DNA of 22,862 nucleotides. Source: a virus. Its lineage: Duplodnaviria; Heunggongvirae; Uroviricota; Caudoviricetes. A program made the translations under genes and the position numbers. Positions 2,936 to 16,435 of the stretch are shown one piece after another (positions within the stretch are counted from its first letter, which is position 1; the number at the start of each line of letters is the position of its first letter). The DNA lies in IMG/VR virus record IMGVR_UViG_3300020582_000005; one strand, given 5' to 3'. The notes beneath the pieces were generated by a model, which worked only from the letters and a program-made list of their open reading frames with translations, searched no databases and had not been told where the DNA came from.

Positions 2936-2970
2936 AAATAAAAAACCCGCCACAATGGGCGGGTTGTTTT
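2936..2970 (-). terminator. Rho-independent terminator closing the tRNA array
   Basis: AACCCGCC/GGCGGGTT stem followed by TTTTTTATTT on - strand, directly after last tRNA. Confidence 0.85.
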
Positions 2971-3044
2971 GGTTGGCTGACTAGGATTCGAACCTAGATT
3001 TTATCGTTCAGAGCGACACGTGCTGCCGATTGCACTATCTGCCA
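2970..3044 (-). tRNA. tRNA-Gln(CTG)
   Basis: Cloverleaf, loop CT-CTG-AA, TTCGAAT, encoded CCA; one A-A acceptor mismatch. Confidence 0.9.
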
Positions 3045-3048
3045 ATAT

Positions 3049-3123
3049 TGGTTGCCTCGCTTGGATTCGAACCAAGATACCATGTTTCAAAGACATGGGT
3101 CCTGCCGATTGAACGACAAGGCA
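3049..3123 (-). tRNA. tRNA-Gln(TTG)
   Basis: Cloverleaf, loop CT-TTG-AA, CCA. Confidence 0.95.
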
Positions 3124-3205
3124 ATAGTCCGTTACTTTTTACGCCACGGTTTATACGACGACTTCCTTCGTACGGGCGATATCATCGATCCATGGTCACG
3201 ACGAC

Positions 3206-3280
3206 TGGCTCATCTGGAAGGATTCGAACCTACAACCCTCTCCTTAACAGGGAGTCGCTCTACCGTTGAGCTACAGATGA
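3206..3280 (-). tRNA. tRNA-Asn(GTT)
   Basis: TCATCTG/CAGATGA acceptor, loop CT-GTT-AA, G73, CCA. Confidence 0.93.
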
Positions 3281-3284
3281 ATCT

Positions 3285-3360
3285 TGGTGGACCGCCACGG
3301 ACTCGAACCGTGAACCCACTCCTTAAAAGGGAGGTATGTTGCCTCTAACACCTGCAGTCC
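3285..3360 (-). tRNA. tRNA-Lys(TTT)
   Basis: GGACTGC/GCGGTCC acceptor, loop CT-TTT-AA, CCA; A at position 8. Confidence 0.88.
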
Positions 3361-3362
3361 AT

Positions 3363-3449
3363 TGGCGGAAGATCAGTGAATCGAACACTGTCAGGCTTTC
3401 ACCTGTCACTATTTTCGAGATAGTTGCCGACCATTCAGCGCTATCTTCC
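3363..3449 (-). tRNA. tRNA-Ser(CGA)
   Basis: Long variable arm, G73, loop CT-CGA-AA. Confidence 0.92.
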
Positions 3450-3450
3450 C

Positions 3451-3555
3451 TTAAACAAACTTTGGCGGCGAACAAAAATCTTTTGAAGAGCCTACTTTAA
3501 ATCCAGAAACAAAGTATCCAATCCATAAACCTAATCTGTGCATTATAAATGACAT
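3451..3555 (-). CDS. Small hypothetical protein (34 aa) between Ser tRNAs
   Basis: GGAGAATAAA-ATG; fills the spacer exactly. Confidence 0.5.
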   Translation of the reverse strand: MSFIMHRLGLWIGYFVSGFKVGSSKDFCSPPKFV

Positions 3556-3567
3556 TTTATTCTCCAT

Positions 3568-3656
3568 TGGCGGAACGTGGTCGAATCGAACGGCCTTACC
3601 CCTTGCGAGATATCACCGTTTTCAAGACAGATGCTCACCATTAAGCGCTACGCTCC
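3568..3656 (-). tRNA. tRNA-Ser(TGA)
   Basis: Long variable arm, G73, loop CT-TGA-AA. Confidence 0.9.
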
Positions 3657-3658
3657 GT

Positions 3659-3748
3659 TGGCGGAGAGTGCAGGATTTGAACCTGCACAAGCTTTCGCTT
3701 GACTTCAGTTTAGCAAACTGACACGTTGCCGGATTCCGTCAACTCTCC
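3659..3748 (-). tRNA. tRNA-Ser(GCT)
   Basis: GGAGAGT/ACTCTCC acceptor, long V arm, loop TT-GCT-AA. Confidence 0.93.
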
Positions 3749-4182
3749 GAATTTTCTATCTTTGCATGATTCTTACGAGTGTCCACATCTCGTTTACAAA
3801 CTTTACAATAAGTGCCGCTACGACTATCATAAAACTCAGAAACCGGTAGTGCTCTCTTGTGTCGTGAACACCATCTCATGCCATCTGGAACATTATACGG
3901 TGAACGATAGTATGAATGAGGACGATTACAATCACAATGAGAAAAAGCGATATTATCTAAATCCCAAAACAAAGACGAATCTCGTCCTTCCCAAGGCTCT
4001 TTATGCTCAACACTCAAATCTTCGGCTACAGAAATTACTTGTTTACACTTAAAACAAACATTCTGTTGTAAACAAACGAGTAAATGAAAAAGAATATTCT
4101 TTCTCAGTTTATTTGCCGCTGCACCATGCGACATTCCCAATTGCTGAAAAATACGCTGCTTTCGTAATTCATCCTTATTCAT
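3739..4182 (-). CDS. HNH endonuclease-like protein
   Basis: CFKC...SVEH...DLDNIAFSHCDCN beta-beta-alpha-Me-like motif; stop lies inside tRNA-Ser(GCT). Confidence 0.75.
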   Translation of the reverse strand: MNKDELRKQRIFQQLGMSHGAAANKLRKNILFHLLVCLQQNVCFKCKQVISVAEDLSVEHKEPWEGRDSSLFWDLDNIAFSHCDCNRPHSYYRSPYNVPDGMRWCSRHKRALPVSEFYDSRSGTYCKVCKRDVDTRKNHAKIENSES

Positions 4183-4226
4183 AAGCCTTTGACTCCTTAA
4201 AGTCGTTGACTATTTAGGACTTCCTT

Positions 4227-4367
4227 TTAATCGTTATATTCGGGGTGACAGAAAATTACTGCATTATCGTCATCTAACTTTTCAACTGTCAAGACAATCC
4301 GATCTGCACCATTCAACAACTGACGCTTAACTTCTTCAGTGATAATGTTAACAGTTTCTTCAAACAT
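4227..4367 (-). CDS. Small acidic hypothetical protein (46 aa, MFEETVNIITEEVKRQLL...)
   Basis: GAGGAA SD, ATG 4367, TAA 4227; manual translation. Confidence 0.65.
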   Translation of the reverse strand: MFEETVNIITEEVKRQLLNGADRIVLTVEKLDDDNAVIFCHPEYND

Positions 4368-4379
4368 GGTTCCTCAAAT

Positions 4380-4454
4380 TGGCAGGACGGGTCTGAGTCG
4401 AACAGACACTGCATCGTTTTGGAGACGAGCCGACTACCGCTATCTTACCGACCT
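4380..4454 (-). tRNA. tRNA-Trp(CCA)
   Basis: Loop CT-CCA-AA, G73, CCA; T-T acceptor mismatch. Confidence 0.88.
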
Positions 4455-4487
4455 ATATGAACATAAATGTGTATAACGCTTCGTAAA

Positions 4488-4564
4488 TGGAGCACGGAGT
4501 GAGACTCGAACTCACTAAGAAGCGTTTTGCAGACGCTCGCCTCGACCGATTCGGCATTCCGTGC
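4488..4564 (-). tRNA. tRNA-Cys(GCA)
   Basis: Loop CT-GCA-AA, U73, CCA. Confidence 0.93.
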
Positions 4565-4566
4565 AT

Positions 4567-4642
4567 TGGTAGCGGATAAGGGACTCGGACCCATAACTTC
4601 CACTTTGTAGGAGTGGCACTCTAGCCATTGAGTTAATCCGCT
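4567..4642 (-). tRNA. tRNA-Val(TAC)
   Basis: Loop CC-TAC-AA (C33), T-loop TCCGAGT, CCA. Confidence 0.85.
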
Positions 4643-4645
4643 ATA

Positions 4646-4719
4646 TGGTAGGGCTACCGGGACTCGAACCCGGACTACTTACTTGAAAGGCAAGCGTGCT
4701 ACCATTGCACTATAACCCC
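4646..4719 (-). tRNA. tRNA-Glu(TTC)
   Basis: Loop CT-TTC-AA, CCA. Confidence 0.92.
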
Positions 4720-4721
4720 AT

Positions 4722-4797
4722 TGGTACTCTCAGTGTGATTCGAACACACGTCACTGCTTTGAGAAAGCAGTATCCTAAACCCCTAGAAGATGGGAGC
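4722..4797 (-). tRNA. tRNA-Glu(CTC)
   Basis: Loop TT-CTC-AA, CCA. Confidence 0.88.
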
Positions 4798-4813
4798 ACA
4801 TGGTCGGACTCGC

Positions 4814-4888
4814 TGGTCGGTCTACTCGGATTCGAACCGAGATTTGCCGAGTAAGAGTCGGCGCTTCTAGCCGTTGAATTATAGACCG
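4814..4888 (-). tRNA. tRNA-Lys(CTT)
   Basis: CGGTCTA/TAGACCG acceptor, loop CT-CTT-AC; zero spacer from upstream tRNA. Confidence 0.92.
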
Positions 4889-4982
4889 TGGTAGTCGGAG
4901 CCAGATTCGAACTGACATCGTGCGCCAATCTAGCGCTTATACAGTTTATAAGACTGCCGCTCTACCATTGAGCTATCCGACT
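4889..4982 (-). tRNA. tRNA with TAT (Ile) anticodon and 24-nt variable region
   Basis: AGTCGGA/TCCGACT acceptor, loop CT-TAT-AA, V arm GCGCT/GGCGC, A73, CCA. Confidence 0.88.
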
Positions 4983-4984
4983 AT

Positions 4985-5059
4985 TGGCGATCCTAGCAGG
5001 ACTCGAACCCGCATAACTAGTTTCGAAGACTAGCGCCTTTTCCATTAGACGATAGGACC
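4985..5059 (-). tRNA. tRNA-Arg(TCG)
   Basis: Loop CT-TCG-AA, CCA. Confidence 0.92.
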
Positions 5060-5061
5060 AT

Positions 5062-5136
5062 TGGCATCCCTGAGAGGACTCGAACCCCCATCCATCCGGT
5101 AGAAACGGAGTACTCTTTCCATTGAGCTACAGGGAC
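5062..5136 (-). tRNA. tRNA-Arg(TCT)
   Basis: Loop TT-TCT-AC, CCA. Confidence 0.9.
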
Positions 5137-5138
5137 AT

Positions 5139-5213
5139 TGGCGATGACGAGGGGTATCGAACCCCCACACTCTGTCGTGACAGGACAGCGCACTACCATT
5201 ATGCTACGTCACC
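5139..5213 (-). tRNA. tRNA-Asp(GTC)
   Basis: Loop CT-GTC-AC, G73, CCA. Confidence 0.93.
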
Positions 5214-5217
5214 AAAT

Positions 5218-5294
5218 TGGCTGGCCCAGAGCGACTCGAACGCTCACCCTCTCCGTTAACAGCGGAGTGTACTACCGAATTATACGACAGGCCA
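5218..5294 (-). tRNA. tRNA-Asn(GTT), second divergent copy
   Basis: Loop CT-GTT-AA, G73, CCA. Confidence 0.92.
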
Positions 5295-5305
5295 ATTAAA
5301 ACTTC

Positions 5306-5379
5306 TGGAGCGGCTTGCGGGAATCGAACCCGCCTTTAATGCTTGGCAAGCATTCGTACTGCCAATGTACGAAAGCCGC
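5306..5379 (-). tRNA. tRNA-Gly(GCC)
   Basis: GCGGCTT/AAGCCGC, loop TT-GCC-AA, U73. Confidence 0.95.
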
Positions 5380-5381
5380 AT

Positions 5382-5476
5382 TGGGAGAGGATTCTCTGAT
5401 CCATTCCGGTTTCAGATGCGAAGCATCAAGTCAAGCCTGTTTGGTCACGGTCGGCTTTCACCATCCCTTGCGGGAG
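5382..5476 (-). ncRNA. Candidate CCA-terminated structured RNA between the two Gly tRNAs
   Basis: Several hairpins, ends in CCA followed by the array-typical AT spacer; no cloverleaf; structure by eye only. Confidence 0.35.
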
Positions 5477-5551
5477 TGGAGCGAACAACGGGATTCGAAC
5501 CCGTACGTTAAGTTTGGAAGACTCACATGCTACCATTAACATCATGCTCGC
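5477..5551 (-). tRNA. tRNA-Gly(TCC)
   Basis: Loop CT-TCC-AA, U73, CCA. Confidence 0.93.
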
Positions 5552-5553
5552 AT

Positions 5554-5632
5554 TGGTAGCGGGAGTCGGATTCGAACCGACGATAACGAGGTTATGAATC
5601 TCGTGTCTTAGGCCAGACTAGACGATCCCGCA
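5554..5632 (-). tRNA. tRNA-Met(CAT), initiator-like acceptor (U1.U72 mismatch)
   Basis: TGCGGGA/TCCCGCT, loop TT-CAT-AA; lacks three consecutive G-C anticodon pairs. Confidence 0.88.
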
Positions 5633-6018
5633 ATAGAAATCAAATTATGATCAAATTCCCAATGATGATTTGGACACAACGCTACCAAATTATTCAAATC
5701 ATTTATTTGAGCAATCGTAGCGTCATCAGGAAACTCAGATACTGCTTTCAAATGAGCGATCTCAACGTAATTAGAATATCCACATTTCGAACACTTTAGT
5801 TTATTACCACTTCGTTCCCAAATAGCAGCAGCGTGTTTTCTTATTGAACTTCTAGCTGACTGCCAATTCTTTCTCGAAGAAAATAAATCTTTCTTAGTTC
5901 TACTGCCCATAACTGAGTGCGAACTCTTAAATCTAGCGGCACAAGGACGACTACAAAACCGTAATTTAGGTTTATACGCCTCGAATTCAACGCCACAACT
6001 TAAACATAAACGCATCAT
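5608..6018 (-). CDS. HNH endonuclease
   Basis: CxxC motifs, EIAH...NNLVALCPNHH HNH motif; stop inside tRNA-Met. Confidence 0.88.
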   Translation of the reverse strand: MMRLCLSCGVEFEAYKPKLRFCSRPCAARFKSSHSVMGSRTKKDLFSSRKNWQSARSSIRKHAAAIWERSGNKLKCSKCGYSNYVEIAHLKAVSEFPDDATIAQINDLNNLVALCPNHHWEFDHNLISIAGSSSLA

Positions 6019-6219
6019 AATCCCACCGATTGATAGGAGCTACCTATCAACCAAATGAAAAGTAATCACTCACGAAAACATTTCGAACTGGACGCCTTTT
6101 CATGAGCGGGTGGCCAGCCTATGTTTCTAAACAGAACGAGTCTGATTAGAACAGCCCTACATCACGCCAGCTTAGCCCTGCAGAGCTTCAGCGTCTTGCC
6201 AGCATGATGTTATGTAAAG

Positions 6220-6294
6220 TGGCGGCTACTGAGGGAGTCGGACCCTCTCCTCTTGTTCTTCAGACAAGCGCTCTACCGTTGGAGCTACATAGCC
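6220..6294 (-). tRNA. tRNA-Phe(GAA)
   Basis: Loop CT-GAA-GA, T-loop TCCGACT, G73, CCA. Confidence 0.85.
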
Positions 6295-6295
6295 A

Positions 6296-6371
6296 TGGTG
6301 GACCTAGTCGGCTCTGCCCCGACCGCCTCTGCTGTGCAAGAGCAGCGCTCTTCTTAATGAGCTACAGGCCC
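6296..6371 (-). tRNA. tRNA-Ala(TGC) with non-canonical D/T loops
   Basis: G3:U70, A73, loop CT-TGC-AC; T-loop GGCAGAG; D-loop without GG. Confidence 0.85.
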
Positions 6372-6380
6372 AATTTAAAC

Positions 6381-6409
6381 ATTGTATCAAACTTCTAACA
6401 GTTTGTCAA
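6381..6409 (-). promoter_or_regulatory. sigma70-type promoter
   Basis: TTGACA-17 bp-TACAAT with TGn, just upstream of tRNA-Ala. Confidence 0.85.
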
Positions 6410-6417
6410 GCTTTATT

Positions 6418-6801
6418 TTATACGTAATTGACAGTTACAATTACACCAGATGACGGGGAAACCGAACCCGCTGTTCCACCAGTGGTAACACAAAGTGCTG
6501 TCAAAGCTGTACCAAACGTTTTACCTGGAGCCGAACCAGTATTATAGTTCTGTGTAATTACCGCCCCACCGGGAACATACAAAATTTCATCAGGTGCTGT
6601 CGTTCCTACTACCACGGAACCTGCCGCTAAATTATACAACTTAACATACGATGCTGCGCCACCGTTAGCCGAATTATCAACTGAAATCCAGTAAACCTTT
6701 GCCGAGGACGCTTTGATAGCATCGGCTGTATTCCCCATGGCTGTATCTGTAAAGATAACCTCATTGGCTGGCGTTGCTACAGTCACTTGTGTAATAGACA
6801 T
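6418..6801 (-). CDS. Hypothetical Thr/Ala/Gly-rich protein (putative structural)
   Basis: 127 aa, AAGGAGA SD. Confidence 0.75.
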   Translation of the reverse strand: MSITQVTVATPANEVIFTDTAMGNTADAIKASSAKVYWISVDNSANGGAASYVKLYNLAAGSVVVGTTAPDEILYVPGGAVITQNYNTGSAPGKTFGTALTALCVTTGGTAGSVSPSSGVIVTVNYV

Positions 6802-6812
6802 TTAATTTCTCC

Positions 6813-7196
6813 TTATGCTCCGTGAGCTACGCCTAGATAATCAAGCCAATAAGAAATATTTCCACCAGGATTGATAACCTGTATAATATCTAACAACAAG
6901 GGATTATCAAACGCTGAAGCGAATAAAGTTGCTGTCGATCCTTGAAGAATAGGGGTAAAATAAACCCCCAAAACGGTTCCATCTGTTGGATTAACAGCTG
7001 GACTATGAACCTTACCAAGATAATCTACGTTAATCATAACGGAAGGAGCGCCACCTGTCTGACTACCAGGACTTGCAATTTGAATCAAATCTAAATTCTG
7101 CGCTTCGTTAGAAGAAAACGCATATTGAACCGACAAGCCATTAGTTACTGAAGCTTGAACTCTAGATAACACCGCCACTGATGTTGCTGCCGCCAT
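6813..7196 (-). CDS. Hypothetical protein (putative structural)
   Basis: 127 aa, GAGGTGA SD; LDLIQI/LDIIQVI internal echo. Confidence 0.75.
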   Translation of the reverse strand: MAAATSVAVLSRVQASVTNGLSVQYAFSSNEAQNLDLIQIASPGSQTGGAPSVMINVDYLGKVHSPAVNPTDGTVLGVYFTPILQGSTATLFASAFDNPLLLDIIQVINPGGNISYWLDYLGVAHGA

Positions 7197-7213
7197 GAAT
7201 CACCTCACAAATT

Positions 7214-7301
7214 TGGTCGGAGTGAAAGGACTCGAACCTTCAAGGTCTTTCGACACCAGTTTCCAAAACTGGCAAGCTTCCATTTACTTAACTACACTCC
7301 G
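7214..7301 (-). tRNA. tRNA-Pro(TGG) with long variable arm
   Basis: C1-G72, A73, loop TT-TGG-AA; V region TGTCGAAAGACCTT. Confidence 0.85.
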
Positions 7302-7304
7302 AAA

Positions 7305-7395
7305 TGGTGGATGTGGTAGGAGTTGAACCTACAACGTCGTAAGCGACGAAGTGTTTTACAGACACCAGAACCTAGCCGGTTTGTTCATCACATCC
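7305..7395 (-). tRNA. tRNA-Tyr(GTA)
   Basis: G1-C72, A73, long V arm, loop CT-GTA-AA. Confidence 0.92.
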
Positions 7396-7397
7396 AT

Positions 7398-7469
7398 TGG
7401 AGCGGAGACACGGATTCGAACCGTGCATTCAGGCTTTACGAAAGCCAAATGGTGAGCCTCACTCACCGC
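7398..7469 (-). tRNA. tRNA-Thr(CGT), reduced D arm (possibly degenerate)
   Basis: Loop TT-CGT-AA, canonical T arm, CCA; short D region. Confidence 0.65.
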
Positions 7470-7471
7470 AT

Positions 7472-7548
7472 TGGGGTGGATAACGGGAGTCGGACCCGTC
7501 CTGGCTCTTTCACAGAGAGCAGTGCCTCACCGCTACACTATATCCACC
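7472..7548 (-). tRNA. tRNA-His(GTG)
   Basis: Encoded G-1 and C73, loop CT-GTG-AA, T-loop TCCGACT. Confidence 0.92.
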
Positions 7549-7554
7549 ATAGAA

Positions 7555-7583
7555 ATTCTATCAAACTTCTTCAAGTTTGTCAA
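7555..7583 (-). promoter_or_regulatory. sigma70-type promoter
   Basis: TTGACA-17 bp-TAGAAT with TGn, 6 nt from tRNA-His G-1. Confidence 0.85.
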
Positions 7584-7589
7584 GCTATT

Positions 7590-8003
7590 TTAAGCGTGAT
7601 CTCCTTTATCTCCCTTGGGACCTTGTGCTCCATCTTTTCCATCACGACCGGGAGCGCCATCTTTACCGGGATCGCCTTTCAAACCAGCTGGACCGAAAGG
7701 ACCTTGATCACCCTTGTCTCCCTTCATACCATCTTTACCGTCTGCTCCAGCTTTACCATCTAAACCTTTCGATCCTGCGTCCCCTTTGTCGCCTTTATTT
7801 CCTTGAGGACCTGTAGGACCTTCTACTCCGGATTTACCTTGCGGACCTGCTGGACCTACTGAACCTACATGACCCGCTAGCCCTGCGGGACCGACTGGAC
7901 CACGTGGACCTGCAGCACCAGGAACTCCGGAAACTTTATGAAACAAAGAAAAAATTAACGATACACCAGCAACACCAATAGCAATAAATGCTAGATCAAT
8001 CAT
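7590..8003 (-). CDS. Collagen-like protein with N-terminal membrane anchor
   Basis: Hydrophobic N-terminus then uninterrupted Gly-X-Y repeats. Confidence 0.9.
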   Translation of the reverse strand: MIDLAFIAIGVAGVSLIFSLFHKVSGVPGAAGPRGPVGPAGLAGHVGSVGPAGPQGKSGVEGPTGPQGNKGDKGDAGSKGLDGKAGADGKDGMKGDKGDQGPFGPAGLKGDPGKDGAPGRDGKDGAQGPKGDKGDHA

Positions 8004-8030
8004 CTATCCCCCTCAGAACAGTGATTTACT

Positions 8031-8115
8031 TGGAGCAGGCTGGAAGACTCGAACTTCCGTGGGTTTTATCCGGCAGTTTACAAAACTGCTGCTGTCGCCT
8101 CTGAGCCAAGCCTGC
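8031..8115 (-). tRNA. tRNA-Thr(TGT) with extended variable region
   Basis: GCAGGCT/AGCCTGC, loop TT-TGT-AA, 14-nt V region, U73. Confidence 0.85.
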
Positions 8116-8494
8116 GAATTTTTCTTCCTTTACCCATATTCAAACTTCTGTAAGTAGGAGTCAAAGAATGACAATTCGGACACAACAAAATAAGATTCTC
8201 AATTTTATTGTTATCCCAATGTCCATCGATGTGTTCCAACTCAACTGGAGAATGTCCTGTTAAAGGATTAATCTCGTTCCAACCACACCGCTCGCACTTT
8301 TCTCCACGAACTTTAATCAGATAAGTTCGTATGTGAGCCGATGTTTTATTAGCACCCTTATTTTGAATAATACCGGATTCTTCACCCGAAAGCCATCTTT
8401 GAATCCAGTCATTCTGTAAAACTAAACGGGCACACTTTCTACAACCCTTTGCTGCTTTTGAAACTCGTATTCCACAGTACAGGCACACTTTCAT
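8078..8494 (-). CDS. HNH endonuclease
   Basis: CERCG...VELEHIDGHWDNNKIENLILLCPNCH; stop inside tRNA-Thr(TGT) anticodon loop. Confidence 0.92.
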   Translation of the reverse strand: MKVCLYCGIRVSKAAKGCRKCARLVLQNDWIQRWLSGEESGIIQNKGANKTSAHIRTYLIKVRGEKCERCGWNEINPLTGHSPVELEHIDGHWDNNKIENLILLCPNCHSLTPTYRSLNMGKGRKIRRLGSEATAAVL

Positions 8495-8535
8495 TTTTCC
8501 TCCTTTGAGAGCCTGTACTTTCTCAAAGAATGTTA

Positions 8536-8609
8536 TGGAGCTAACTCAGTGAATCGAACACTGGTCTGCTAGGTACTAACTAGCGGTAATTCCACTATAC
8601 GAAGTCAGC
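8536..8609 (-). tRNA. tRNA-Thr(AGT)
   Basis: GCTGACT/AGTTAGC, GCTAG/CTAGC stem, loop TT-AGT-AC. Confidence 0.88.
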
Positions 8610-8747
8610 TTAAATCTTTTTCAAATATAACACAATGTCTCTAATCTTGTCAAACAAATTATACTGAAACTTGTACTCAGCATAACTAGTCAGAACACCA
8701 CCGACAAATAAAGCAACGAACAAAGCGATGAATGCGTGTAGAGGCAT
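8610..8747 (-). CDS. Small membrane protein (45 aa, MPLHAFIALFVALFVGGVLTS...)
   Basis: GGAGAT SD, hydrophobic N-terminus; TAA abuts tRNA-Thr(AGT). Confidence 0.7.
   Translation of the reverse strand: MPLHAFIALFVALFVGGVLTSYAEYKFQYNLFDKIRDIVLYLKKI
8624..8653 (-). promoter_or_regulatory. Possible internal sigma70 promoter for tRNA-Thr(AGT)
   Basis: TTGACA-18 bp-TATATT with TGn; lies inside a CDS so may be coincidental. Confidence 0.45.
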
Positions 8748-8755
8748 TTTATCTC

Positions 8756-8953
8756 CTAGAGAAGTGCTTTCAAACGTGCTAACACATTTGCGGCTACGGA
8801 TTCCCCTTCTGATTCTAGCTTAGCGATTTCAACTTTGATAGATTCTTTAACTTTAGCTATTTCTTTCAAAGCTGCATTTTCTTCGACTAGCAAATCGTTC
8901 ACGACAGAAAGATTACCCACTTTTGCCATTAAACGCTCAATTGTTATATTCAT
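8756..8953 (-). CDS. Small coiled-coil protein
   Basis: 65 aa, heptad-like, AAGGAAGA SD. Confidence 0.75.
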   Translation of the reverse strand: MNITIERLMAKVGNLSVVNDLLVEENAALKEIAKVKESIKVEIAKLESEGESVAANVLARLKALL

Positions 8954-8972
8954 TTCTTCTTCCTTTTATGTT

Positions 8973-9881: not shown

Positions 9882-9882
9882 G

Positions 9883-10590: not shown

Positions 10591-10598
10591 AAATCCTC

Positions 10599-12212
10599 TT
10601 AAATCACTGGCTGAAAATCTTGAGATGTAGGATCGAAATCAGAACTTTCAACATCTCCATTTTCAGTAACCATATGGACTATGGCTGTACGCATGGCTCT
10701 AACTTCTAAAATCAACATTTGAATCAACTCTGTCAAGCCACGAGTGTCTTGGCTATTAGGAGAAATAGTAACCACTAAAGCCGAATCCGTATTAAGTGGC
10801 GCTATAGTTCCCGGTTTAACCGCAACCGGACCATTCACACCATCCGTAATTTCCATTGGCCAAGCGTTCACTAATGTATTAGGCGTGCCCTGATTCGCTG
10901 TGACTGTTCCGGAAATAGGAATTGCTATTCCACCTGTAAATCCTTCAATAATAACAGAACGACCACCTGCACCTAACGGTACGGGCTGATATTGAGGAGT
11001 GGCGTCATTTGATTCACCACCTATCACCAAGAAATTCGTTTCTGCGGTTGTACCGTCAGTTGTTGTACCGACAACATCGACATTTCCTGTGATAGTTGTT
11101 GATGTCAAAGATACAACCCAAGGACTTGTACCTTGAGTAACACTGACAGTTCCAGTAATGGCAACTGTGCCATTTGAACCTATATCTACTTTAAGTACAC
11201 CGGTTCCGGCGTCTACTTGAACTCTGCGCCAAACAGAATTGGTTGCATCCCATCCACCAAGCAAAGCAAATGTGTCTTCAGCATCCGTTGGATTTGCAAA
11301 CGTATCTGATGGAGTCTTTGCTCCCGCTACAATCCAAGGACTTGTCCCTTGTGTTACGCTGACTGTGCCGGTTATAGTTGTAGAACTTAGTGATACAACC
11401 CAAGGAGACGTTCCTTGAGTAACACTAACTGTTCCGGAGTCTACGATGACGTGTTGTGGAGCAGAAAAACTTATCGATCCGCTAATTGGAACAGCTGTTC
11501 CACCAGCGACACCTTCAATAATTACACTGCGACCAGCGGCTCCAAGCGGAATTGGTTGATACTGAGCAGTTGCATCGTTAGACTCGCCGCCAACTACTAG
11601 AAAAGGTGTCTCTGTTGTGCTACCATCTGTCGTTGTTCCGACAACGTTTACGTTTCCGGTAATCGTTGTAGAAACTAACGATACAACCCAAGGCGAGGTT
11701 CCTTGCGTGACACTGACACTTCCAGAAACAGTCACAGCAGGAGTATTCTCAATCAAAACTTTAAGTTGACCAGCCGCATCCGTTGATAGAACTCTTACAT
11801 CAGCTCCATCCCATCCTAACGCTGCTGTTCCTGTAGGAGTCGCAACTGCGGTACCCGTTGCGTACTGAGTGCCGCCACCGAAACTGGTAATTTGATCACC
11901 GTTAGCATTGACGATAGCTACGGCTATTGGAGTGGAATCTGTCAGATTGAATCCAGTGACACCAAACAAAGTGCCACCGATATTCACGCCTAGATAATCA
12001 GCGTCTGCTGGAACAGGAGCACCAGTAGGACCAGCTGCGGCGTTACCGCTTCCCCCGCCACCACCGATGCTGGTAACTTTTAAATTACCATTTATATCGA
12101 ACTGAAGAGAACAAGCCTGACCATCTGTTAAAGTAAAAGGAGCGAGATTATAAAATCCGCCGACTGTGAAAGGACCGTTATTCTGTCTTGTACTTCCCGG
12201 TCCCTGCGCCAT
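10599..12212 (-). CDS. Repeat-containing putative fibre/virion protein
   Basis: 537 aa; four VSVTQGTSPW(V/I)V motifs and two ~80-aa modules (TTITGNV..GGESNDAT.QYQP.PLGA.GRSVIIEG..PISG). Confidence 0.75.
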   Translation of the reverse strand: MAQGPGSTRQNNGPFTVGGFYNLAPFTLTDGQACSLQFDINGNLKVTSIGGGGGSGNAAAGPTGAPVPADADYLGVNIGGTLFGVTGFNLTDSTPIAVAIVNANGDQITSFGGGTQYATGTAVATPTGTAALGWDGADVRVLSTDAAGQLKVLIENTPAVTVSGSVSVTQGTSPWVVSLVSTTITGNVNVVGTTTDGSTTETPFLVVGGESNDATAQYQPIPLGAAGRSVIIEGVAGGTAVPISGSISFSAPQHVIVDSGTVSVTQGTSPWVVSLSSTTITGTVSVTQGTSPWIVAGAKTPSDTFANPTDAEDTFALLGGWDATNSVWRRVQVDAGTGVLKVDIGSNGTVAITGTVSVTQGTSPWVVSLTSTTITGNVDVVGTTTDGTTAETNFLVIGGESNDATPQYQPVPLGAGGRSVIIEGFTGGIAIPISGTVTANQGTPNTLVNAWPMEITDGVNGPVAVKPGTIAPLNTDSALVVTISPNSQDTRGLTELIQMLILEVRAMRTAIVHMVTENGDVESSDFDPTSQDFQPVI

Positions 12213-12222
12213 GTCTTCCTCT

Positions 12223-12648
12223 TTACAAATTCATTTTTATCTTTTGAATAACAGCTGTGACGATCTCACTTATACTTGGAGAATAACCAGGATCACCTTT
12301 TGGACCCTGTACTCCGGTTGCCCCGGTCGCTCCGGTCGCTCCTTGCGACCCCTGCGGACCCCGCTCCCCTGTGTCTCCCTTGGCACCTTGTGGTCCGGGT
12401 GTGTGACTGACACCTGCCTCACCACGATCCCCTTTGGGTCCGGGGATGCCTTGTGGTCCTCGTGGACCCGGCAGATTGGAAATGCCTGGATCGCCTTTTG
12501 GTCCTTGCCCACCAGGATCACCTTTGCGACTGGAAATTTGCTTTTGCTGTAATGTTATGTGATCTAAAAACTGTTGAACAGTCTTATTTTTTAAATCATT
12601 AAATTCAGCTCTAAGTTGTTCAATTTCTTTTTCTAAATCTACGCTCAT
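12223..12648 (-). CDS. Collagen-like protein with N-terminal coiled coil
   Basis: Gly-X-Y run after DLEKEIEQLRAEFNDLK. Confidence 0.88.
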   Translation of the reverse strand: MSVDLEKEIEQLRAEFNDLKNKTVQQFLDHITLQQKQISSRKGDPGGQGPKGDPGISNLPGPRGPQGIPGPKGDRGEAGVSHTPGPQGAKGDTGERGPQGSQGATGATGATGVQGPKGDPGYSPSISEIVTAVIQKIKMNL

Positions 12649-13571
12649 TACAAAACTCCTGATTCCAAATATTTAATTCGTTCTCGTAATTGCTTAATTT
12701 CCAAAGCTTGTTTAAAAACTAACTCTTCCCTCTTGTGTCGATCTCTAGGAACCCACACAAGATTACCCGGCATTATTCCTACAGATTTATCCACAACGTG
12801 GAGATCATAAAACTTACCTGGCTTAGGTCCTATTTCTTTTAACAAACAATTTTCGCCCTCAATAAAGGAACCACCTTTGTCATAATTCCAAGCATCATAA
12901 AAGGGCATATCCACATACCACTTTGTTTTAAGTCTAAAAATATAACGATGATGATTTCTAAGACTAGCAGCAATTGGGTGGCTTTGACTCCAGTTCCTAC
13001 ACCACTCATTTCTAAGCTTAGCGTGCCGCTGAACACTTTCAGACACCTTAGAATTAAGTTGAAAATTCAAAACGGCTGCTTCGTCATCGCTTCTTTCTGA
13101 AATGAATCCCACACTTTGTTTTTCTTGCAAAGAAAAATTCTTTATAAAATAATCTTTTTCTTGTAGTGGAATCGCCCACCTGAAATCGCTACGTCCTCGA
13201 CTTACAAATCTAACCTTAGTAAGTAAATTAGGGCATCGTCTATTAATTTGCGTTACTAATGTAGTACAATCGCTCTTGGTAATAGCCTTAGAAAAATTCA
13301 ACTCTTTTGCTAAATCGACTAATGGAATAAATTTTGAAGAATCTACGCCGTATCCTAATTTCTTTATAACACATTCTTTTTCCGATGCGGGAATGGCCCA
13401 TACCAAACCATCACGTACTCCAGATACTTTATCTAAATGAATTTTCCTAACTAAACCTGGAAATGCTCGCTCTATGAGTTCTCTAAAATTAGTAGAATCT
13501 GATTTCCTAATAGCCGCAGGCAAACCTAACTCTTTTGCTAAATCTAAAACCGTAATAAACCTTTCTTTCAT
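12648..13571 (-). CDS. Hypothetical protein with two N-terminal repeats and a degenerate HNH-like C-terminus
   Basis: ATG 13571 after GGAGG; repeats LDLAKELG/VDLAKELN...WAIP; C-term IGPKP..YDLHVVDK..G..PGNLVWV resembles the GxRP..SLDRIDNxxGYxPGNxRW pattern. Confidence 0.6.
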   Translation of the reverse strand: MKERFITVLDLAKELGLPAAIRKSDSTNFRELIERAFPGLVRKIHLDKVSGVRDGLVWAIPASEKECVIKKLGYGVDSSKFIPLVDLAKELNFSKAITKSDCTTLVTQINRRCPNLLTKVRFVSRGRSDFRWAIPLQEKDYFIKNFSLQEKQSVGFISERSDDEAAVLNFQLNSKVSESVQRHAKLRNEWCRNWSQSHPIAASLRNHHRYIFRLKTKWYVDMPFYDAWNYDKGGSFIEGENCLLKEIGPKPGKFYDLHVVDKSVGIMPGNLVWVPRDRHKREELVFKQALEIKQLRERIKYLESGVL

Positions 13572-13664
13572 TCTTTCCTCCACTAAGGAAAGCAGGGAGC
13601 AGTAGTGGCTGCTCCCGCCCGTTTAGCTAAACAAACTTAAATCTTTATTTATCGATAACTTACG

Positions 13665-13928
13665 TCAGTTCCCCCGGTACCCGTTGCCACTGACGCCGGG
13701 TGCTCCGTCACTACCAATGTCATTAAATCCTAGTTGCTGCCGATGTGCTTTCTTAGCAGCTGCGCCGTCATCACACTTTGCTTCTATAACTGCGCTAGCA
13801 GAAGGAAGAGAACCTTTTCTCAATGTAGCCTCTTCAGCGTTTGACTTACCACGACTATGCACCCCCGCATCGGGGTGGCTCATGTCGTGCTCGAATGCAC
13901 AATCAGGAATCGTTGTTTTAAAATTCAT
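13665..13928 (-). CDS. Hypothetical protein (87 aa; in-frame alternative start at 14021)
   Basis: AAAGGA SD before ATG 13928. Confidence 0.6.
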   Translation of the reverse strand: MNFKTTIPDCAFEHDMSHPDAGVHSRGKSNAEEATLRKGSLPSASAVIEAKCDDGAAAKKAHRQQLGFNDIGSDGAPGVSGNGYRGN

Positions 13929-14022
13929 AAAAATCCTTTTAAACCAAAAGAAAAAGCGGAAGTGTCTCCGTTTTCTTCCGCTTATTTTAATAGAAAGAGT
14001 AGCTCTGGATGTCTGCGGCATA

Positions 14023-14295
14023 TTATGCCCCAGAATCTGTAACCTGAATAACAACCGTGTCTGTGACGGCTGCGGTAGGAGTACCACTAATTAATCCACT
14101 AGATGATAGTGTTAAACCAGCTGGAAGACTACTTCCTGCTTGAAGCGACCATACATAAGGAGCGGTACCACCACTAGCTACAAGTTGTTCTGAATAAGCT
14201 TGTCCAACTTGTCCATTAGGCAACGATGTGGTAACAATAACTAGCGGTGATGGTGTAACAACTAAAGAAAAACTAGCAGTTGCTGTTTGTGGCAT
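14023..14295 (-). CDS. Putative Ig-domain (He_PIG-like) protein
   Basis: IVTTSLPNGQVGQAYSEQLVASGGTAPYVWS...LPAGLTLSSSGLISGTPT motif; GAGGGGG SD before ATG 14295. Confidence 0.85.
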   Translation of the reverse strand: MPQTATASFSLVVTPSPLVIVTTSLPNGQVGQAYSEQLVASGGTAPYVWSLQAGSSLPAGLTLSSSGLISGTPTAAVTDTVVIQVTDSGA

Positions 14296-14317
14296 ATAAG
14301 TCCCCCTCAGAACTAAT

Positions 14318-14518
14318 TTACAAATCATCTGCTCCTAAAATTCCTCTATTATCGAGCGGTGTTAATCCTACTCGTGTCAAAATAAAAATTATCTTGTCGC
14401 CAGCATACGTTTCTATCCGAAACTTAAAATCGCCATTAGCTTGTTTCTTTGTGACTAAGCGATATTCAGTCACACCTGCTTTCTCTCTTTCTGAAAAATA
14501 ATTATAAAGTGCCTGCAT
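14318..14518 (-). CDS. Hypothetical protein
   Basis: 66 aa, TAATG coupling with upstream ORF. Confidence 0.7.
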   Translation of the reverse strand: MQALYNYFSEREKAGVTEYRLVTKKQANGDFKFRIETYAGDKIIFILTRVGLTPLDNRGILGADDL

Positions 14519-14631
14519 TATTTCTTCCGTGTCAAAACGTACTCAAACTTCTTTTTCAAGAAAGTGACTAAAGTATTATGCTGCTTTTCCCACTCTTTAT
14601 ACGTCAGTTCTTGCTCAATTTTCTTATCCAC
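14518..14631 (-). CDS. Small hypothetical protein (37 aa, GTG start)
   Basis: AGGTGA SD; TAATG overlap with next gene. Confidence 0.6.
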   Translation of the reverse strand: MDKKIEQELTYKEWEKQHNTLVTFLKKKFEYVLTRKK

Positions 14632-14686
14632 TATTCACCTTTTAACTTAAGTGCCAGTTGTTTACCGTGGTGACTGGCAACCACTC

Positions 14687-14770
14687 TGGTCGGTCACAGA
14701 GGATTTGAACCTCTATGCTGTTAAGCGGCGGGGTTTAAGTCCGCTGCGTATGCCATTCCGCCAGTGACCG
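14687..14770 (-). tRNA. tRNA-Leu(TAA)
   Basis: Long V arm, A73, loop CT-TAA-AC; C1-G72. Confidence 0.9.
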
Positions 14771-14815
14771 AAGATTGTTTCTTATTTCTTCCACAATATG
14801 TTGATGTTTGTGAAT

Positions 14816-14900
14816 TGGTACGGCTAGAGGGATTTGAACCCCCATGGCTGTTAACCGGTAGGGTCTAAACCTACTGTGTCTGCCTTTCCACCACAGCCGT
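14816..14900 (-). tRNA. tRNA-Leu(TAG)
   Basis: Long V arm, A73, loop TT-TAG-AC. Confidence 0.92.
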
Positions 14901-14912
14901 ATAGTTTATTTC

Positions 14913-14997
14913 TGGTCGGTAATGAGGGAGTCGAACCCACATGAATTGCTTCGCCGCTTTTTGAGAACGGTGCGTCTGCCAGTTCCGCCAATCACCG
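14913..14997 (-). tRNA. tRNA-Leu(CAA)
   Basis: Long V arm, A73, loop CT-CAA-AA; C1-G72. Confidence 0.9.
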
Positions 14998-15001
14998 AAA
15001 A

Positions 15002-15271
15002 TTACATAATGTTTCCAAACAATAAAGCTGTTAACGAACAGCCTAACACAAAGAATAAGAAATCTATTCCAGAACTAAACCACGTTTGTTTATCTTCCCA
15101 AGGAGCACATCCTAAAGACTCCAGCGCCTCTTTGAAACCTGTAAAAAGAAGAGTCAACATAAATGGATGCCAGAAATGAACACGAGCGAATAAGAAAGGA
15201 AGATAAGCTCCCCAAGCTAAATGTGCTAACTGAGCCACCATCCAATTAAAATTATTTGGTTTCATGTCCAT
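15002..15271 (-). CDS. Small multi-pass membrane protein
   Basis: 89 aa with 2-3 hydrophobic segments. Confidence 0.7.
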   Translation of the reverse strand: MDMKPNNFNWMVAQLAHLAWGAYLPFLFARVHFWHPFMLTLLFTGFKEALESLGCAPWEDKQTWFSSGIDFLFFVLGCSLTALLFGNIM

Positions 15272-15647
15272 CTGGATACTTTGTATAATCCGATTCGATC
15301 TGCTTGACTGCTTCGGTCAAAGTCTTGAAACCGTAAACTGCCCATTTAGGTGCCGATTCGTTATCTACAGCTAAGCCTAGATTCCAAACATCTTCTGCTG
15401 GATGCTGATACAACCCAATCAAGTTATGTTCTTTTGCAAAAGCGTTAAACTGATCCCACGCTACTTGAGCTTCCTGTTCCGTTTCCGGACTATAAGCTAT
15501 CGGCTGCATCATAACAATCTTATTGTGCATCGGTTTAAATACTTCTACTCGGTGCATCTTCTGCAAATCGACAGCTGCTTGATCTAACTTCACTTTTACT
15601 ACACCAAGAGACAGTAAGGAAACCAACATTAGCAGAACTATTTTCAT
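15252..15647 (-). CDS. Hypothetical protein with N-terminal signal/anchor
   Basis: 131 aa; ATGA coupling. Confidence 0.72.
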   Translation of the reverse strand: MKIVLLMLVSLLSLGVVKVKLDQAAVDLQKMHRVEVFKPMHNKIVMMQPIAYSPETEQEAQVAWDQFNAFAKEHNLIGLYQHPAEDVWNLGLAVDNESAPKWAVYGFKTLTEAVKQIESDYTKYPDGHETK

Positions 15648-15808
15648 TTTCCACCGGGAAGGCTTAGTGATTCTGCCTTCAATTTTCTTAACTCTTCGTC
15701 CATAGCTTTCTTAAACATCTTAACGTGTCGCTTTGTCAAGATATAATCGTCGACAATCAAGCCTAACCAAATACAAATCAGATAAAAGATCAACCAAACT
15801 GGTAGCAT
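15644..15808 (-). CDS. Small membrane protein (54 aa, MLPVWLIFYLICIWLGLIVDD...)
   Basis: TAATG and ATGA overlaps with both neighbours. Confidence 0.7.
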   Translation of the reverse strand: MLPVWLIFYLICIWLGLIVDDYILTKRHVKMFKKAMDEELRKLKAESLSLPGGK

Positions 15809-16005
15809 TATCTACCGACAAAAAATGGGTTAGCTGATCCATCTAAATGCAATCGAACTTTCGGATTCGCTGGACCCCAAATAGTAATAACATAAGGATT
15901 AGGAGTTCCATCACTTAGTTTCGTTGCTTGCGAATGCAATGCGCCTGCGGCTTGCACCGATTCTTCTTCAATTTTAAATCCAACAACCGGTTTAGTTGCT
16001 GCCAT
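15808..16005 (-). CDS. Hypothetical protein
   Basis: 65 aa, AAGGAGA SD. Confidence 0.72.
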   Translation of the reverse strand: MAATKPVVGFKIEEESVQAAGALHSQATKLSDGTPNPYVITIWGPANPKVRLHLDGSANPFFVGR

Positions 16006-16014
16006 AAAATCTCC

Positions 16015-16314
16015 TTAAAATCCACCAGGGGCTGGATTGTTACTTGAATTCAAATTAACAATTTGAAAATTTACACCTGAGACATTAGCACCTGCCATCG
16101 TGACGCTATGAGAATAACGACAAGTCGTCGTAGCAACTCCTGTTGATATAACCGTCAAAACGTATGTTCTCAAGTCGGGAACAGTAAATGTAAAATTTCC
16201 GCTGGCATCACAAATATACGTTTGATTGATGTCACCTCTATCGGAGATTAATTCTATGGTGGCTCCGGAGCCAGTTGCTCCACCTACGTTTCCTGTGATC
16301 GTGAAATTTGCCAT
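16015..16314 (-). CDS. Beta-sandwich-like putative surface protein
   Basis: 99 aa; ITGNV..GATIEL...CDASGNFTF...YVLT pattern like carboxypeptidase-regulatory-like domains. Confidence 0.65.
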   Translation of the reverse strand: MANFTITGNVGGATGSGATIELISDRGDINQTYICDASGNFTFTVPDLRTYVLTVISTGVATTTCRYSHSVTMAGANVSGVNFQIVNLNSSNNPAPGGF

Positions 16315-16361
16315 GATACCTCAAAAGTGACTAGCCTTTCGTTTTCACACCGGCATAGCCC

Positions 16362-16435
16362 TGGTAGACCATCAGGGATTCGAACCCCGATTTCTCGTTA
16401 ATCGGACGAGCGTCCTACCGTTGGACGAATAGTCT
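16362..16435 (-). tRNA. tRNA-Ile(GAT) with atypical anticodon loop
   Basis: AGACTAT/ATGGTCT, loop CC-GAT-TA (C33, U37), CCA. Confidence 0.83.

Follow-up and report, generated by a model that had tools for sequence, protein, structure and literature searches.

A 109-kb virus record from soil, whose capsid and terminase genes have relatives in the cultured phage Tunturi_3, likely carries a functional phage tRNA array. During infection of what is probably an acidobacterial host, the array would provide a backup set of tRNAs that is close to complete. Our analysis centers on a 22,862-nt stretch of this record, hereafter the window, which contains 32–33 CCA-encoded tRNA genes together with an RNase P RNA gene, structured non-tRNA cassettes, five strong promoters of the sigma-70 type, and a terminator (Table 1). 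Two other assemblies agree with the window at every base (ENA over 17,196 nt; Logan SRR7095402 over 10,901 nt), which makes misassembly an unlikely source of its odd anticodons, with the caveat that those assemblies may derive from the same reads.

Table 1. Features of the tRNA region, in the direction of the minus strand (spacers in letters or nt)
Feature	Position	Strand	Remarks
Promoter TTGACA-17-TATTCT, ahead of RNase P RNA	16957..16985	-	Sigma-70-type; consensus match only
RNase P RNA, class A, shortened	16648..16952	-	Rfam RF00010, 101 bits, E 3.6e-30
tRNA-Ile(GAU)	16362..16435	-	ARAGORN; unusual loop C33/U37, also in some relatives
tRNA-Leu(CAA), (UAG), (UAA)	14687..14997	-	ARAGORN; spacers 12 and 45 nt
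Promoter TTGACA-18-TATATT, ahead of Thr(AGU)	8624..8653	-	
tRNA-Thr(AGU)	8536..8609	-	A34; in relatives' Thr(GGU) slot, before Thr(UGU)
HNH endonuclease gene	8078..8494	-	PF01844, E 2.4e-5; end overlaps Thr(UGU) by 38 nt
tRNA-Thr(UGU)	8031..8115	-	ARAGORN; 85 nt, long variable arm
Promoter TTGACA-17-TAGAAT, ahead of His	7555..7583	-	
His(GUG) - AT - Thr(CGU) - AT - Tyr(GUA) - TTT - Pro(UGG)	7214..7547	-	His: G-1 encoded; Pro: 88 nt, long variable arm
Promoter TTGACA-17-TACAAT, ahead of Ala	6381..6409	-	
Ala(UGC) - T - Phe(GAA)	6220..6371	-	Ala: G3-U70, T loop atypical
Cassette C, about 165-nt structured non-tRNA RNA	6048..6214	-	Covariation; no Rfam family
HNH endonuclease gene	5608..6018	-	PF13391, E 6e-9; end overlaps Met by 25 nt
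Met(CAU) - AT - Gly(UCC)	5477..5632	-	
Cassette A, 95-nt non-tRNA unit	5382..5476	-	Starts directly at Gly CCA
Core block, 12 tRNAs: Gly(GCC) - 11 - Asn - 4 - Asp - 2 - Arg(UCU) - 2 - Arg(UCG) - 2 - Ile(UAU) - 0 - Lys(CUU) - 16 - Glu(CUC) - 2 - Glu(UUC) - 3 - Val(UAC) - 2 - Cys - 33 - Trp	4380..5379	-	ARAGORN; Ile(UAU): 94 nt; Val(UAC): C33
Promoter TTGACA-18-GATAAT, ahead of HNH/Ser block	4263..4292	-	
HNH-like endonuclease gene	3739..4182	-	PF01844, E 0.0016, under Pfam cut-off; end overlaps Ser(GCU) by 10 nt
Ser(GCU) - AC - Ser(UGA) - 118 nt - Ser(CGA) - AT - Lys(UUU) - AGAT - Asn(GUU)	3206..3748	-	
Cassette B, about 80-nt structured non-tRNA RNA	3127..3205	-	Starts directly at Asn CCA
Gln(UUG) - ATAT - Gln(CUG)	2970..3123	-	
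Intrinsic terminator at array end	2944..2965	-	Near-identical in relative L313

The initial annotation counted 33 tRNAs covering all 20 amino acids and all encoding CCA, and this count holds for the minus strand when ARAGORN, Rfam, and inspection by eye are combined. Confirmation by software was partial: ARAGORN returned 30 genes between 2970 and 16435 at default settings, relaxed settings contributed Ser(CGA) (3363–3449), and Rfam contributed Ala(UGC) (6296–6371, 42 bits), which is not among ARAGORN's 30. Thr(CGU) (7398–7469) was spotted by eye only and was seen neither by ARAGORN, even at -ps70, nor by Rfam at E up to 10. Its D arm is collapsed and competes with the acceptor stem, giving a degenerate look that may mark a pseudogene; given this defect and the failure of both tools to detect it, we regard 32 genes as solid and one as doubtful. 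The array spans 13.5 kb (2.4 tRNA genes per kb), with protein genes in between; 29 tRNA genes lie within 2970–8609 and 23 within 2970–6371. These values fall within the definition of a viral tRNA gene cluster (at least 15 genes, at least 2 per kb; PMC6409571).

Promoters were called by match to the sigma-70 consensus, and three directly adjoin tRNAs; by this measure the tRNA region is about five promoter-driven units. A leader-peptide attenuator ahead of the array was considered and rejected, as several amino acids are missing from the 44- and 46-codon ORFs there and these are not followed by a terminator. The A34 tRNA Thr(AGU) (8536–8609) had been overlooked in the initial annotation.

Under standard wobble, 12–13 sense codons, accounting for 16–18% of the phage's codons, would go unread. 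If U34 reads whole family boxes by four-way wobble, all 61 codons become readable on paper, including CGU and CGC via Arg(UCG). All 11 of 11 arrays leave the identical ten pyrimidine-ending codons of Leu, Val, Ser, Pro, and Ala to U34 four-way wobble, and it is in these boxes that decoding is widened by xo5U or by an unmodified U34 (PMC6599085, PMC11571807). Since CmoB is absent from Acidobacteriaceae and TrhO, likewise a host xo5U enzyme, is patchy, it remains a prediction that the U34 tRNAs would read these five boxes entire. The proposal that superwobble brings the set close to a self-sufficient decoding kit stands in part: paper coverage and the clade-wide omission pattern agree with it, but we found no RnpA, synthetase, or tRNA-modifying enzyme in the phage, and its single CAU gene, Met, is initiator-like. 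That gene combines U1xU72 and an initiator-like acceptor with an anticodon stem lacking 3-GC, and is closest to the acidobacterial initiator. An elongator Met tRNA is probably absent, which would leave the array without an initiator–elongator pair; one relative (G013) has a second, elongator-type CAU gene at the Met spot.

Neither Arg(ACG) nor an Ile2-type CAU gene occurs anywhere in the genome, which also lacks Pro(CGG). The reported reliance on Arg(UCG) without ACG is true of this phage but is no design rule: all 14 near-full relatives carry Arg(ACG) or Arg(GCG), so the absence is a local loss. Ile(UAU) in place of lysidine-dependent CAU, also pointed out initially, proved to be the clade norm (13 of 15), with long-arm (89–94 nt) and short (74–75 nt) bodies. 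Reading of AUA by tRNA-Ile(UAU) without lysidine, as predicted here, has parallels in Mycoplasma mobile and tilS-less B. subtilis (PMC3919564) and reportedly in lactic acid bacteria (work cited in PMC9976931); unlike in those cases, the tRNA here is phage-borne. Anticodon loops differ from an acidobacterial reference in 11 of 22 cases, and G37 is avoided clade-wide in Pro, His, and Leu(UAG), both in agreement with PMC10264068.

The codons ATA, TTA, CTA, and AGA make up 1–5% of their amino acid's codons in an acidobacterial sample and 8–32% in the phage, and the omitted G34 species correspond to major host codons. This would fit codon compensation, in which an AT-rich phage (GC 42.6%, GC3 36%) supplies tRNAs for A-ending codons rare in its GC-rich host and omits host-abundant ones. 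We nevertheless consider this reading unlikely, though not negligible: each of the 20 amino acids is served by the array, even those of two-codon families without mismatch, phage codon preference is not tracked by the presence of cognate tRNAs (p 0.96), and no G34 tRNA is there to read the NNU codons that the phage favors for Ala, Val, Pro, and Ser.

The presence of a phage RNase P RNA, on the same strand as the array, is upheld. The RF00010 match covers model positions 1–367 and exceeds the gathering threshold of 100 bits; in an alignment read by eye, P1 of this RNA terminates in CCA, and the GCAA segment (A248) is retained, as is the CCA-binding GGU segment. The class A gene travels with large arrays, occurring in 17 related records and in 10 of the 11 with a completeness of 90% or more and 20 or more tRNAs (the exception starts inside its own array), whereas the complete tRNA-free record has none. 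Such an array does not require it, since the acidobacterial phage Tunturi_5 keeps 42 tRNAs without one; in the present phage, the predicted activity of the RNA would most likely provide extra processing capacity for the tRNA load.

The described tight packing is likewise real: 17 of the 32 tRNA junctions measure 0–4 nt, nine of them exactly AT, and Ile(UAU) (4889–4982) adjoins Lys(CUU) (4814–4888) with no spacer. A-2/U-1 precedes 20 of the 33 genes against a background of 7% (binomial p 2e-15), and U-1 precedes 26; the A-2/U-1 leader stacks favorably in E. coli RNase P structures (PMC11143913), and its frequency supports leaders tuned to RNase P. RNase P-only processing was an overstatement, because Ile|Lys is the sole spacerless junction, making 1 of 32 at which one 5' cut yields a mature CCA, and relatives do not keep it (2, 3, 158, and 445 nt in four of them). 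At the other 16 tight junctions, 1–4 nt are left after CCA. All 17 have spacers below RNase E site size and an encoded upstream CCA, the arrangement of polycistrons separated by RNase P. Comparable spacers below 5 nt occur in T4 dimers and E. coli valT-lysW (2 nt), both handled by host RNase P (PMC11143913), and in valV-valW (4 nt), where separation by RNase P precedes exonuclease trimming (PMC2190699). We propose the same here, namely separation without RNase E and 3' ends finished by exonucleases; T4 differs in having eight tRNAs, some without encoded CCA, and T4 and E. coli rely on host RNase P only.

The suggested tie between tight packing and the phage RNase P RNA fails on these precedents and on 16 relatives that have the RNA and mostly U-rich spacers of 5–12 nt. 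An RNase E-like motif follows 80% of CCAs in the P RNA-bearing relatives with U-rich spacers versus 25% in the short-spacer group; the 14 near-full relatives, with arrays of 29–35 tRNAs and mostly U-rich, RNase E-like spacers, still encode P RNA. By sequence, then, tight packing is the mark of one subclade, and P RNA appears under both spacer styles, RNase E-like and RNase P-separated. This weighs against an array built so that phage RNase P alone matures a self-sufficient kit, independent of host modification, during host tRNA destruction. The co-occurring P RNA, the 17 tight junctions, one of zero length, and the 61 of 61 codons under superwobble speak for such a design, as do Ile(UAU) and A37, which lessen the need for TilS and TrmD; we judge it improbable given the 3' tail at 16 of 17 tight junctions, the unconserved zero junction, the norm of ACG or GCG, the lack of RnpA, and the probable lack of elongator Met. 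No tRNA-destroying nuclease was identified.

Least probable of all is that HNH homing has spread the array largely as selfish or decoy cargo, with tRNAs that are nuclease decoys or decaying and bring little translational gain: three HNH-type genes each overlapping a tRNA 5' end, one degenerate gene, C33, long variable arms, an atypical T loop, and local gene losses could be read this way, but identity bases are conserved, a near-complete anticodon set is fixed across the clade, and acceptor-stem pairs, compared with orthologs, show strong compensatory evolution (1,399 compensatory changes, 207 broken pairs).

For the backup pool that we favor, host RNA polymerase would produce several polycistronic precursors, in which RNase P, with host or phage RNA and necessarily host RnpA, would cleave each mature 5' end and, in the short-spacer subclade, also part neighbors without RNase E. 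Host 3'–5' exonucleases such as RNase PH would then trim the 1–4 nt past CCA, Ile|Lys alone being exempt, and host synthetases and modifying enzymes would complete the tRNAs; RNase PH and RNase E/G are present in 5 of 5 Acidobacteriaceae genomes. The non-tRNA cassettes would share these transcripts and be excised together with the tRNAs, and HNH genes would spread the region. The purpose is probably sustained translation once host tRNAs are depleted or cut.

Two observations point, weakly, to a probable acidobacterial host: matching tRNA identity bases and a distant cultured relative sharing 10 of 135 proteins. This nearest cultured relative, Tunturiibacter phage Tunturi_3 (PP885686), has the same terminase-portal-capsid order and a major capsid protein 38% identical; unlike the present phage, it has only 2–3 tRNAs and no RNase P RNA. 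Tunturiibacter phage Tunturi_5 (PP885688; PMC11924767) resembles the present phage in carrying 43 tRNAs for 20 amino acids, with HNH genes nearby and CCA encoded in 41 of 42 ARAGORN-found tRNAs, but is a jumbo myovirus of 309 kb that has a CCA-adding enzyme and an RNA ligase; its spacers are longer, and Arg(ACG) and G34 isoacceptors are retained. All 20 isotypes are already present in eight known viral tRNA gene clusters (Morgado and Vicente 2019, PMC6409571). Such clusters, and mycobacteriophage Rizal (36 tRNAs, PMC10264068), are alike in gene number, density, and HNH genes; clusters occur in tailed-phage genomes often with HNH endonucleases, as here. This phage is set apart by its RNase P RNA gene and by structured cassettes without an Rfam match, which lie within the array or ahead of it, and PMC6409571 makes no mention of RNase P.

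None of cassettes A, B, and C matched any of 4,227 Rfam models at E up to 10. Cassette C comprises two conserved hairpins, probably joined by GACGC:GCGTC loop-loop pairing, and a variable middle hairpin; across homologs in 7 related records plus L313, 98.9% of alignment cells are paired and 14 of 31 pairs show compensatory change (0 of 500 shuffles). Cassette B has three hairpins and a possible CGCC:GGCG pseudoknot (3 homologs, 91% paired, 6 compensated pairs), support that is weak because the structure was hand-drawn from the same sequences. Cassette A, with one homolog, ends in CCA plus AT and is a candidate structured RNA. A broader view, which we hold as a tentative possibility, is that in this clade of 100–120 kb soil phages the tRNA array is a general stable-RNA operon that includes a working phage RNase P ribozyme, in most cases lodged within the array and bearing tRNA-like ends, and a changing stock of unclassified structured RNAs flanked by tRNA processing signals, some perhaps new ribozymes or anti-defense RNAs matured by the phage enzyme.

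Arrays covering 20 amino acids and tight tRNA spacing were already known; what appears new here is covariation-supported non-tRNA RNAs (C and, more weakly, B) in an array with tRNA-like spacers. For the question of why phages carry tRNAs, the clade amounts to a natural experiment, with a fixed anticodon set that has gaps in four-way-wobble boxes, two spacer styles, and systematic G37 avoidance. This combination would allow one to test how RNase P deals with precursors whose spacers are 0–2 nt long, a question that is open according to PMC11143913, and whether phage tRNAs alone can sustain translation. For structured RNAs without an Rfam family, too, these arrays are a rich and so far untapped source.

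The phage record spans 109,128 nt at 42.6% GC and uses the standard code; the window is a part of it and exactly matches two other assemblies in the stretches matched. ARAGORN identified 30 tRNA genes on the minus strand between 2970 and 16435 and none elsewhere in the genome. Rfam added Ala(UGC), a relaxed ARAGORN search added Ser(CGA), and inspection by eye added Thr(CGU), bearing out the initial annotation's count of 33 genes for 20 amino acids, each with an encoded CCA. Thr(CGU) is doubtful as a real tRNA gene: its D arm is collapsed to a hairpin in competition with the acceptor stem, and the gene received no score from any tool. Comparison of acceptor-stem pairs with orthologs yielded 1,399 compensatory changes against 207 breaks, which argues that the tRNAs are under selection. 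Encoded CCA is not in itself a special trait, as 63 of 64 sampled acidobacterial tRNA genes also carry it. No tmRNA was detected genome-wide, and none of 79 scattered calls from relaxed ARAGORN in the window was credible.

Seventeen of the 32 tRNA–tRNA junctions measure 0–4 nt, nine being exactly AT, and A-2/U-1 precedes 20 of the 33 genes, compared with a 7% background (p 2e-15). The initial observation as such is right. So is the proposal that a single 5' cut between the directly abutting Ile(UAU) and Lys(CUU) also creates the upstream CCA end, because the upstream product of RNase P cleavage keeps a 3'-OH (PMC11143913). The broader claim of RNase P-only processing fails: the other 16 tight junctions leave 1–4 nt past the CCA, for which exonucleases are needed, and the zero spacing at Ile–Lys is not conserved. 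Relatives have 2, 3, 158 or 445 nt at this junction; a spacer of zero length was otherwise seen only at Arg–Asp in the related genome G028. E. coli valV-valW likewise leaves a remainder of the 1–4 nt type that is trimmed by exonucleases (PMC2190699), and equally short spacers in T4 dimers and valT-lysW are handled by host RNase P (PMC11143913). From its sequence, the array would accurately be labeled "RNase P-separated, exonuclease-finished." Two non-tRNA units, cassettes A and B, begin right at the CCA of Gly(UCC) and Asn, respectively, so the 3' ends of these tRNAs probably need an endonuclease cut. The 16-nt spacer past Lys(CUU), which is 3 nt in the related array L313, repeats the Lys 3' end (CCGACCA) and resembles a scar left by an insertion or by the loss of a gene.

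Using the capsid protein and two proteins encoded next to the array as queries, we gathered a clade of 100–120 kb phages. The 14 near-full arrays hold 29–35 tRNAs each, nearly all with CCA, and most relatives have U-rich spacers of 5–12 nt. The RNase E consensus, RN/WUU (PMC5222698), comes after 395 of 494 CCAs in these U-rich-spacer relatives versus 19 of 75 in the studied phage (G000), G013 and G028 combined; the rows of this comparison are not independent. In the capsid tree, a single branch (86/95) sets the short-spacer genomes apart from the rest, and this style also occurs in two further fragments; with the root of the tree unplaced, spacers may have changed in either direction. Given this one-sided distribution and the longer U-rich spacers of most relatives, tight packing is a subclade trait, and the phage RNase P RNA is clade-wide.

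This RNA was found in 17 related records (two near-duplicates), each with 14–33 tRNA hits. Of the 11 near-complete records that have 20 or more tRNAs, 10 carry it and the eleventh starts inside its own array; the one complete tRNA-free record lacks it. Among short-spacer genomes, its region is covered only in G000. In relatives it sits within the array, often no more than 10 nt from a tRNA, and has an NCCA end. The protein partner RnpA was not found in the studied phage or four complete relatives. Among 78 proteins compared with Pfam, structural and glycosylation genes aside, there was no synthetase, CCA-adding enzyme, TilS, RNase T/PH/Z or RNA ligase. A blastn search of cultured phages returned no relative of the RNA, and a literature search turned up no description of an RNase P RNA encoded by a phage, which is not proof of absence. 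Pattern scans of viral contigs for this RNA, cassette C and Thr(AGU) gave no match with patterns that were too strict.

Features of the tRNA array and of other loci. Positions refer to the window unless a locus is named (L017 and L018, stretches of the studied phage's genome; L104, L117 and L313, tRNA-array loci of relatives).
Feature	Position	Strand	Remarks
Class A RNase P RNA	16648–16952	minus	101 bits; A248 and CCA-binding segments visible in alignment
Promoter-like site ahead of RNase P RNA	16985	minus	consensus match
Promoter-like site ahead of Thr(AGU)	8653	minus	consensus match
Promoter-like site ahead of His	7583	minus	consensus match
Promoter-like site ahead of Ala	6409	minus	consensus match
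Promoter-like site ahead of HNH/Ser block	4292	minus	consensus match
Cassette A	5382–5476	minus	two members; ends in CCA-AT
Cassette B	3127–3205	minus	three members; weaker, partly circular support
Cassette C	6048–6214	minus	homologs in seven related records and L313, always in array region
Val(UAC)	4567–4642	minus
Spacer past Lys(CUU)	4798–4813
Collagen-like genes	7590–8003; 12223–12648
Zinc-finger-like ORF	2798–2953
YrlA/Y-RNA-like elements	L313:1808–1878; L104:2389–2509; L117:431–559		latter two by eye
Tyrosine integrase	L017:12913–13842		genome 66609–67541
NAMPT, NUDIX and NADAR genes	L017:15483–17874; L018:5890–6315		positions assigned from ORF list

The array is laid out as several blocks rather than a single compact operon. 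Five promoter-like sites with a perfect TTGACA and a terminator after the last Gln were recognized, all by consensus match only; a leader-peptide attenuator ahead of the array was sought and not found. Three HNH-type genes end 10, 25 and 38 nt within the following tRNA, an overlap that agrees with the expectation that homing genes spread tRNA regions (PMC6409571). Two genes for collagen-like (Gly-X-Y) proteins also break up the region, and directly past the terminator lies a small CxxC...CxCGW zinc-finger-like ORF that is kept in at least seven relatives.

Array spacers hold many conserved non-tRNA elements flanked by tRNA-type signals, three of them in the window (cassettes A–C). The structure of cassette C shows compensatory change in 14 of 31 pairs, 98.9% of cells pair, a level reached by no shuffle, and a GACGC:GCGTC loop–loop pairing contains one compensatory change. 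Single-sequence folding of cassettes A and B was no better than that of shuffles. None of the three matched Rfam, and by informal comparison by eye with consensus patterns none fit HDV-like/theta, hammerhead, SRP or ZTP RNAs. What lies in the slot between two Gly genes varies among close relatives; in L313 it is a weak YrlA-like RNA (27.8 bits against RF02553, below threshold). YrlA/Y-RNA-like elements, in which the T arm precedes the D arm, occur in three arrays. In the tRNA spacers of the relatives' loci L104–L123, conserved elements other than tRNAs fall into more than 15 clusters that relatives share at shifting positions, and seven records share an element of 97–118 nt between two Gln genes. 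In the five arrays scanned, no spacer element matched Rfam at gathering level.

Plain wobble leaves 12–13 codons, or 16–18% of phage codons, unread; four-way reading by U34 would cover them all. In each of the 11 arrays tested, one and the same set of ten codons is uncovered, namely those in the Leu(CUN), Val, Ser(UCN), Pro and Ala boxes that end in a pyrimidine; this lends clade-level support to the suggestion of U34 superwobble decoding. All five boxes are of the NYN type, in which decoding is broadened by xo5U or unmodified U34 (PMC6599085, PMC11571807). The 11 arrays retain Gly(GCC), Thr(GGU; AGU in G000, at the slot of the relatives' Thr(GGU)) and, except in G000, Arg(ACG/GCG). G000 is a reduced clade member: it has neither Arg(ACG/GCG) nor Pro(CGG), both of which all 14 near-full relatives carry, and whole-genome profile searches for hidden copies matched only known tRNAs. 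Lacking Arg(ACG/GCG), it relies on Arg(UCG) or the host for CGU and CGC (~30% of its Arg codons). Its sole CAU gene is nearest to the host initiator, with U1xU72 and without the three-GC stem; G013 has a second, elongator-type CAU gene. The use of Ile(UAU) pointed out initially is the clade norm (13/15). Whether a cognate tRNA is present bears no relation to the phage's use of codons (p 0.96).

Pro, His and Leu(UAG) tRNAs of nearly all members carry A37, compared with G37 in Pro and His of the reference host. A37 in place of G37 would remove the need for TrmD. Eleven of 22 comparable anticodon loops differ from those of the reference host, a divergence predicted for escape from anticodon nucleases (PMC10264068). 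In 15 of 19 clade members, Val(UAC) carries C33 where U33 is otherwise nearly invariant, and three members have C33/U37 in Ile(GAU). Some Met, Asn, Pro and Thr tRNAs, usually short-armed in bacteria, have long variable arms that form tetraloop hairpins; long-arm Met(CAU) and Asn(GUU) genes were seen in G001, G003, G014, G019, G020, G022, G026, G032 and others. Across the clade, long arms are sporadic on Ile, Pro, Thr, Met and Asn, with no signs of recoding; the terminase is open in table 11, and no suppressor tRNA is present. Nothing indicates that the long-arm Ile(UAU) is charged with leucine, as ATA aligns to Ile at 51% and Leu at 15% of a small sample (~50 sites), and ATT at 60% and 7%. Upstream of Pro in the G020 and G022 arrays (L109, L111) lie 70–73 nt Tyr(AUA)-like calls, one without CCA, which may be a non-tRNA cassette.

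Among cultured phages, the capsid protein matches only that of Tunturi_3 of Acidobacteriota (38%), a phage with which 10 of 135 proteins are shared, and the phage identity bases (Thr U73, Gln A73, Glu(CUC) G1-U72/A73, an initiator with a U1 start) fit an acidobacterial set. Together these are suggestive of an acidobacterial host. The capsid protein had no match in GTDB genomes, and integrase homologs yielded no host name. Five of five Acidobacteriaceae genomes encode RNase PH, RNase E/G and their own RNase P RNA; CmoB was found in none and TrhO in two. Tunturi_5 carries 43 tRNAs for 20 amino acids (PMC11924767) but, unlike the studied phage, no RNase P RNA. The phage may be temperate, given that its tyrosine integrase (PF00589) is conserved in relatives. 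Also in the genome are genes for NAMPT and for two further proteins, one with a NUDIX and one with a NADAR domain, a set that suggests NAD salvage against NAD-depleting defences.

We infer the whole mechanism, from expression through cleavage to charging, from sequence. The array is of a known kind, and its tight spacing has classical precedent; what is new is that it comes together with a phage RNase P RNA, a stereotyped anticodon set that depends on wobble, and RNA cassettes of no known class.
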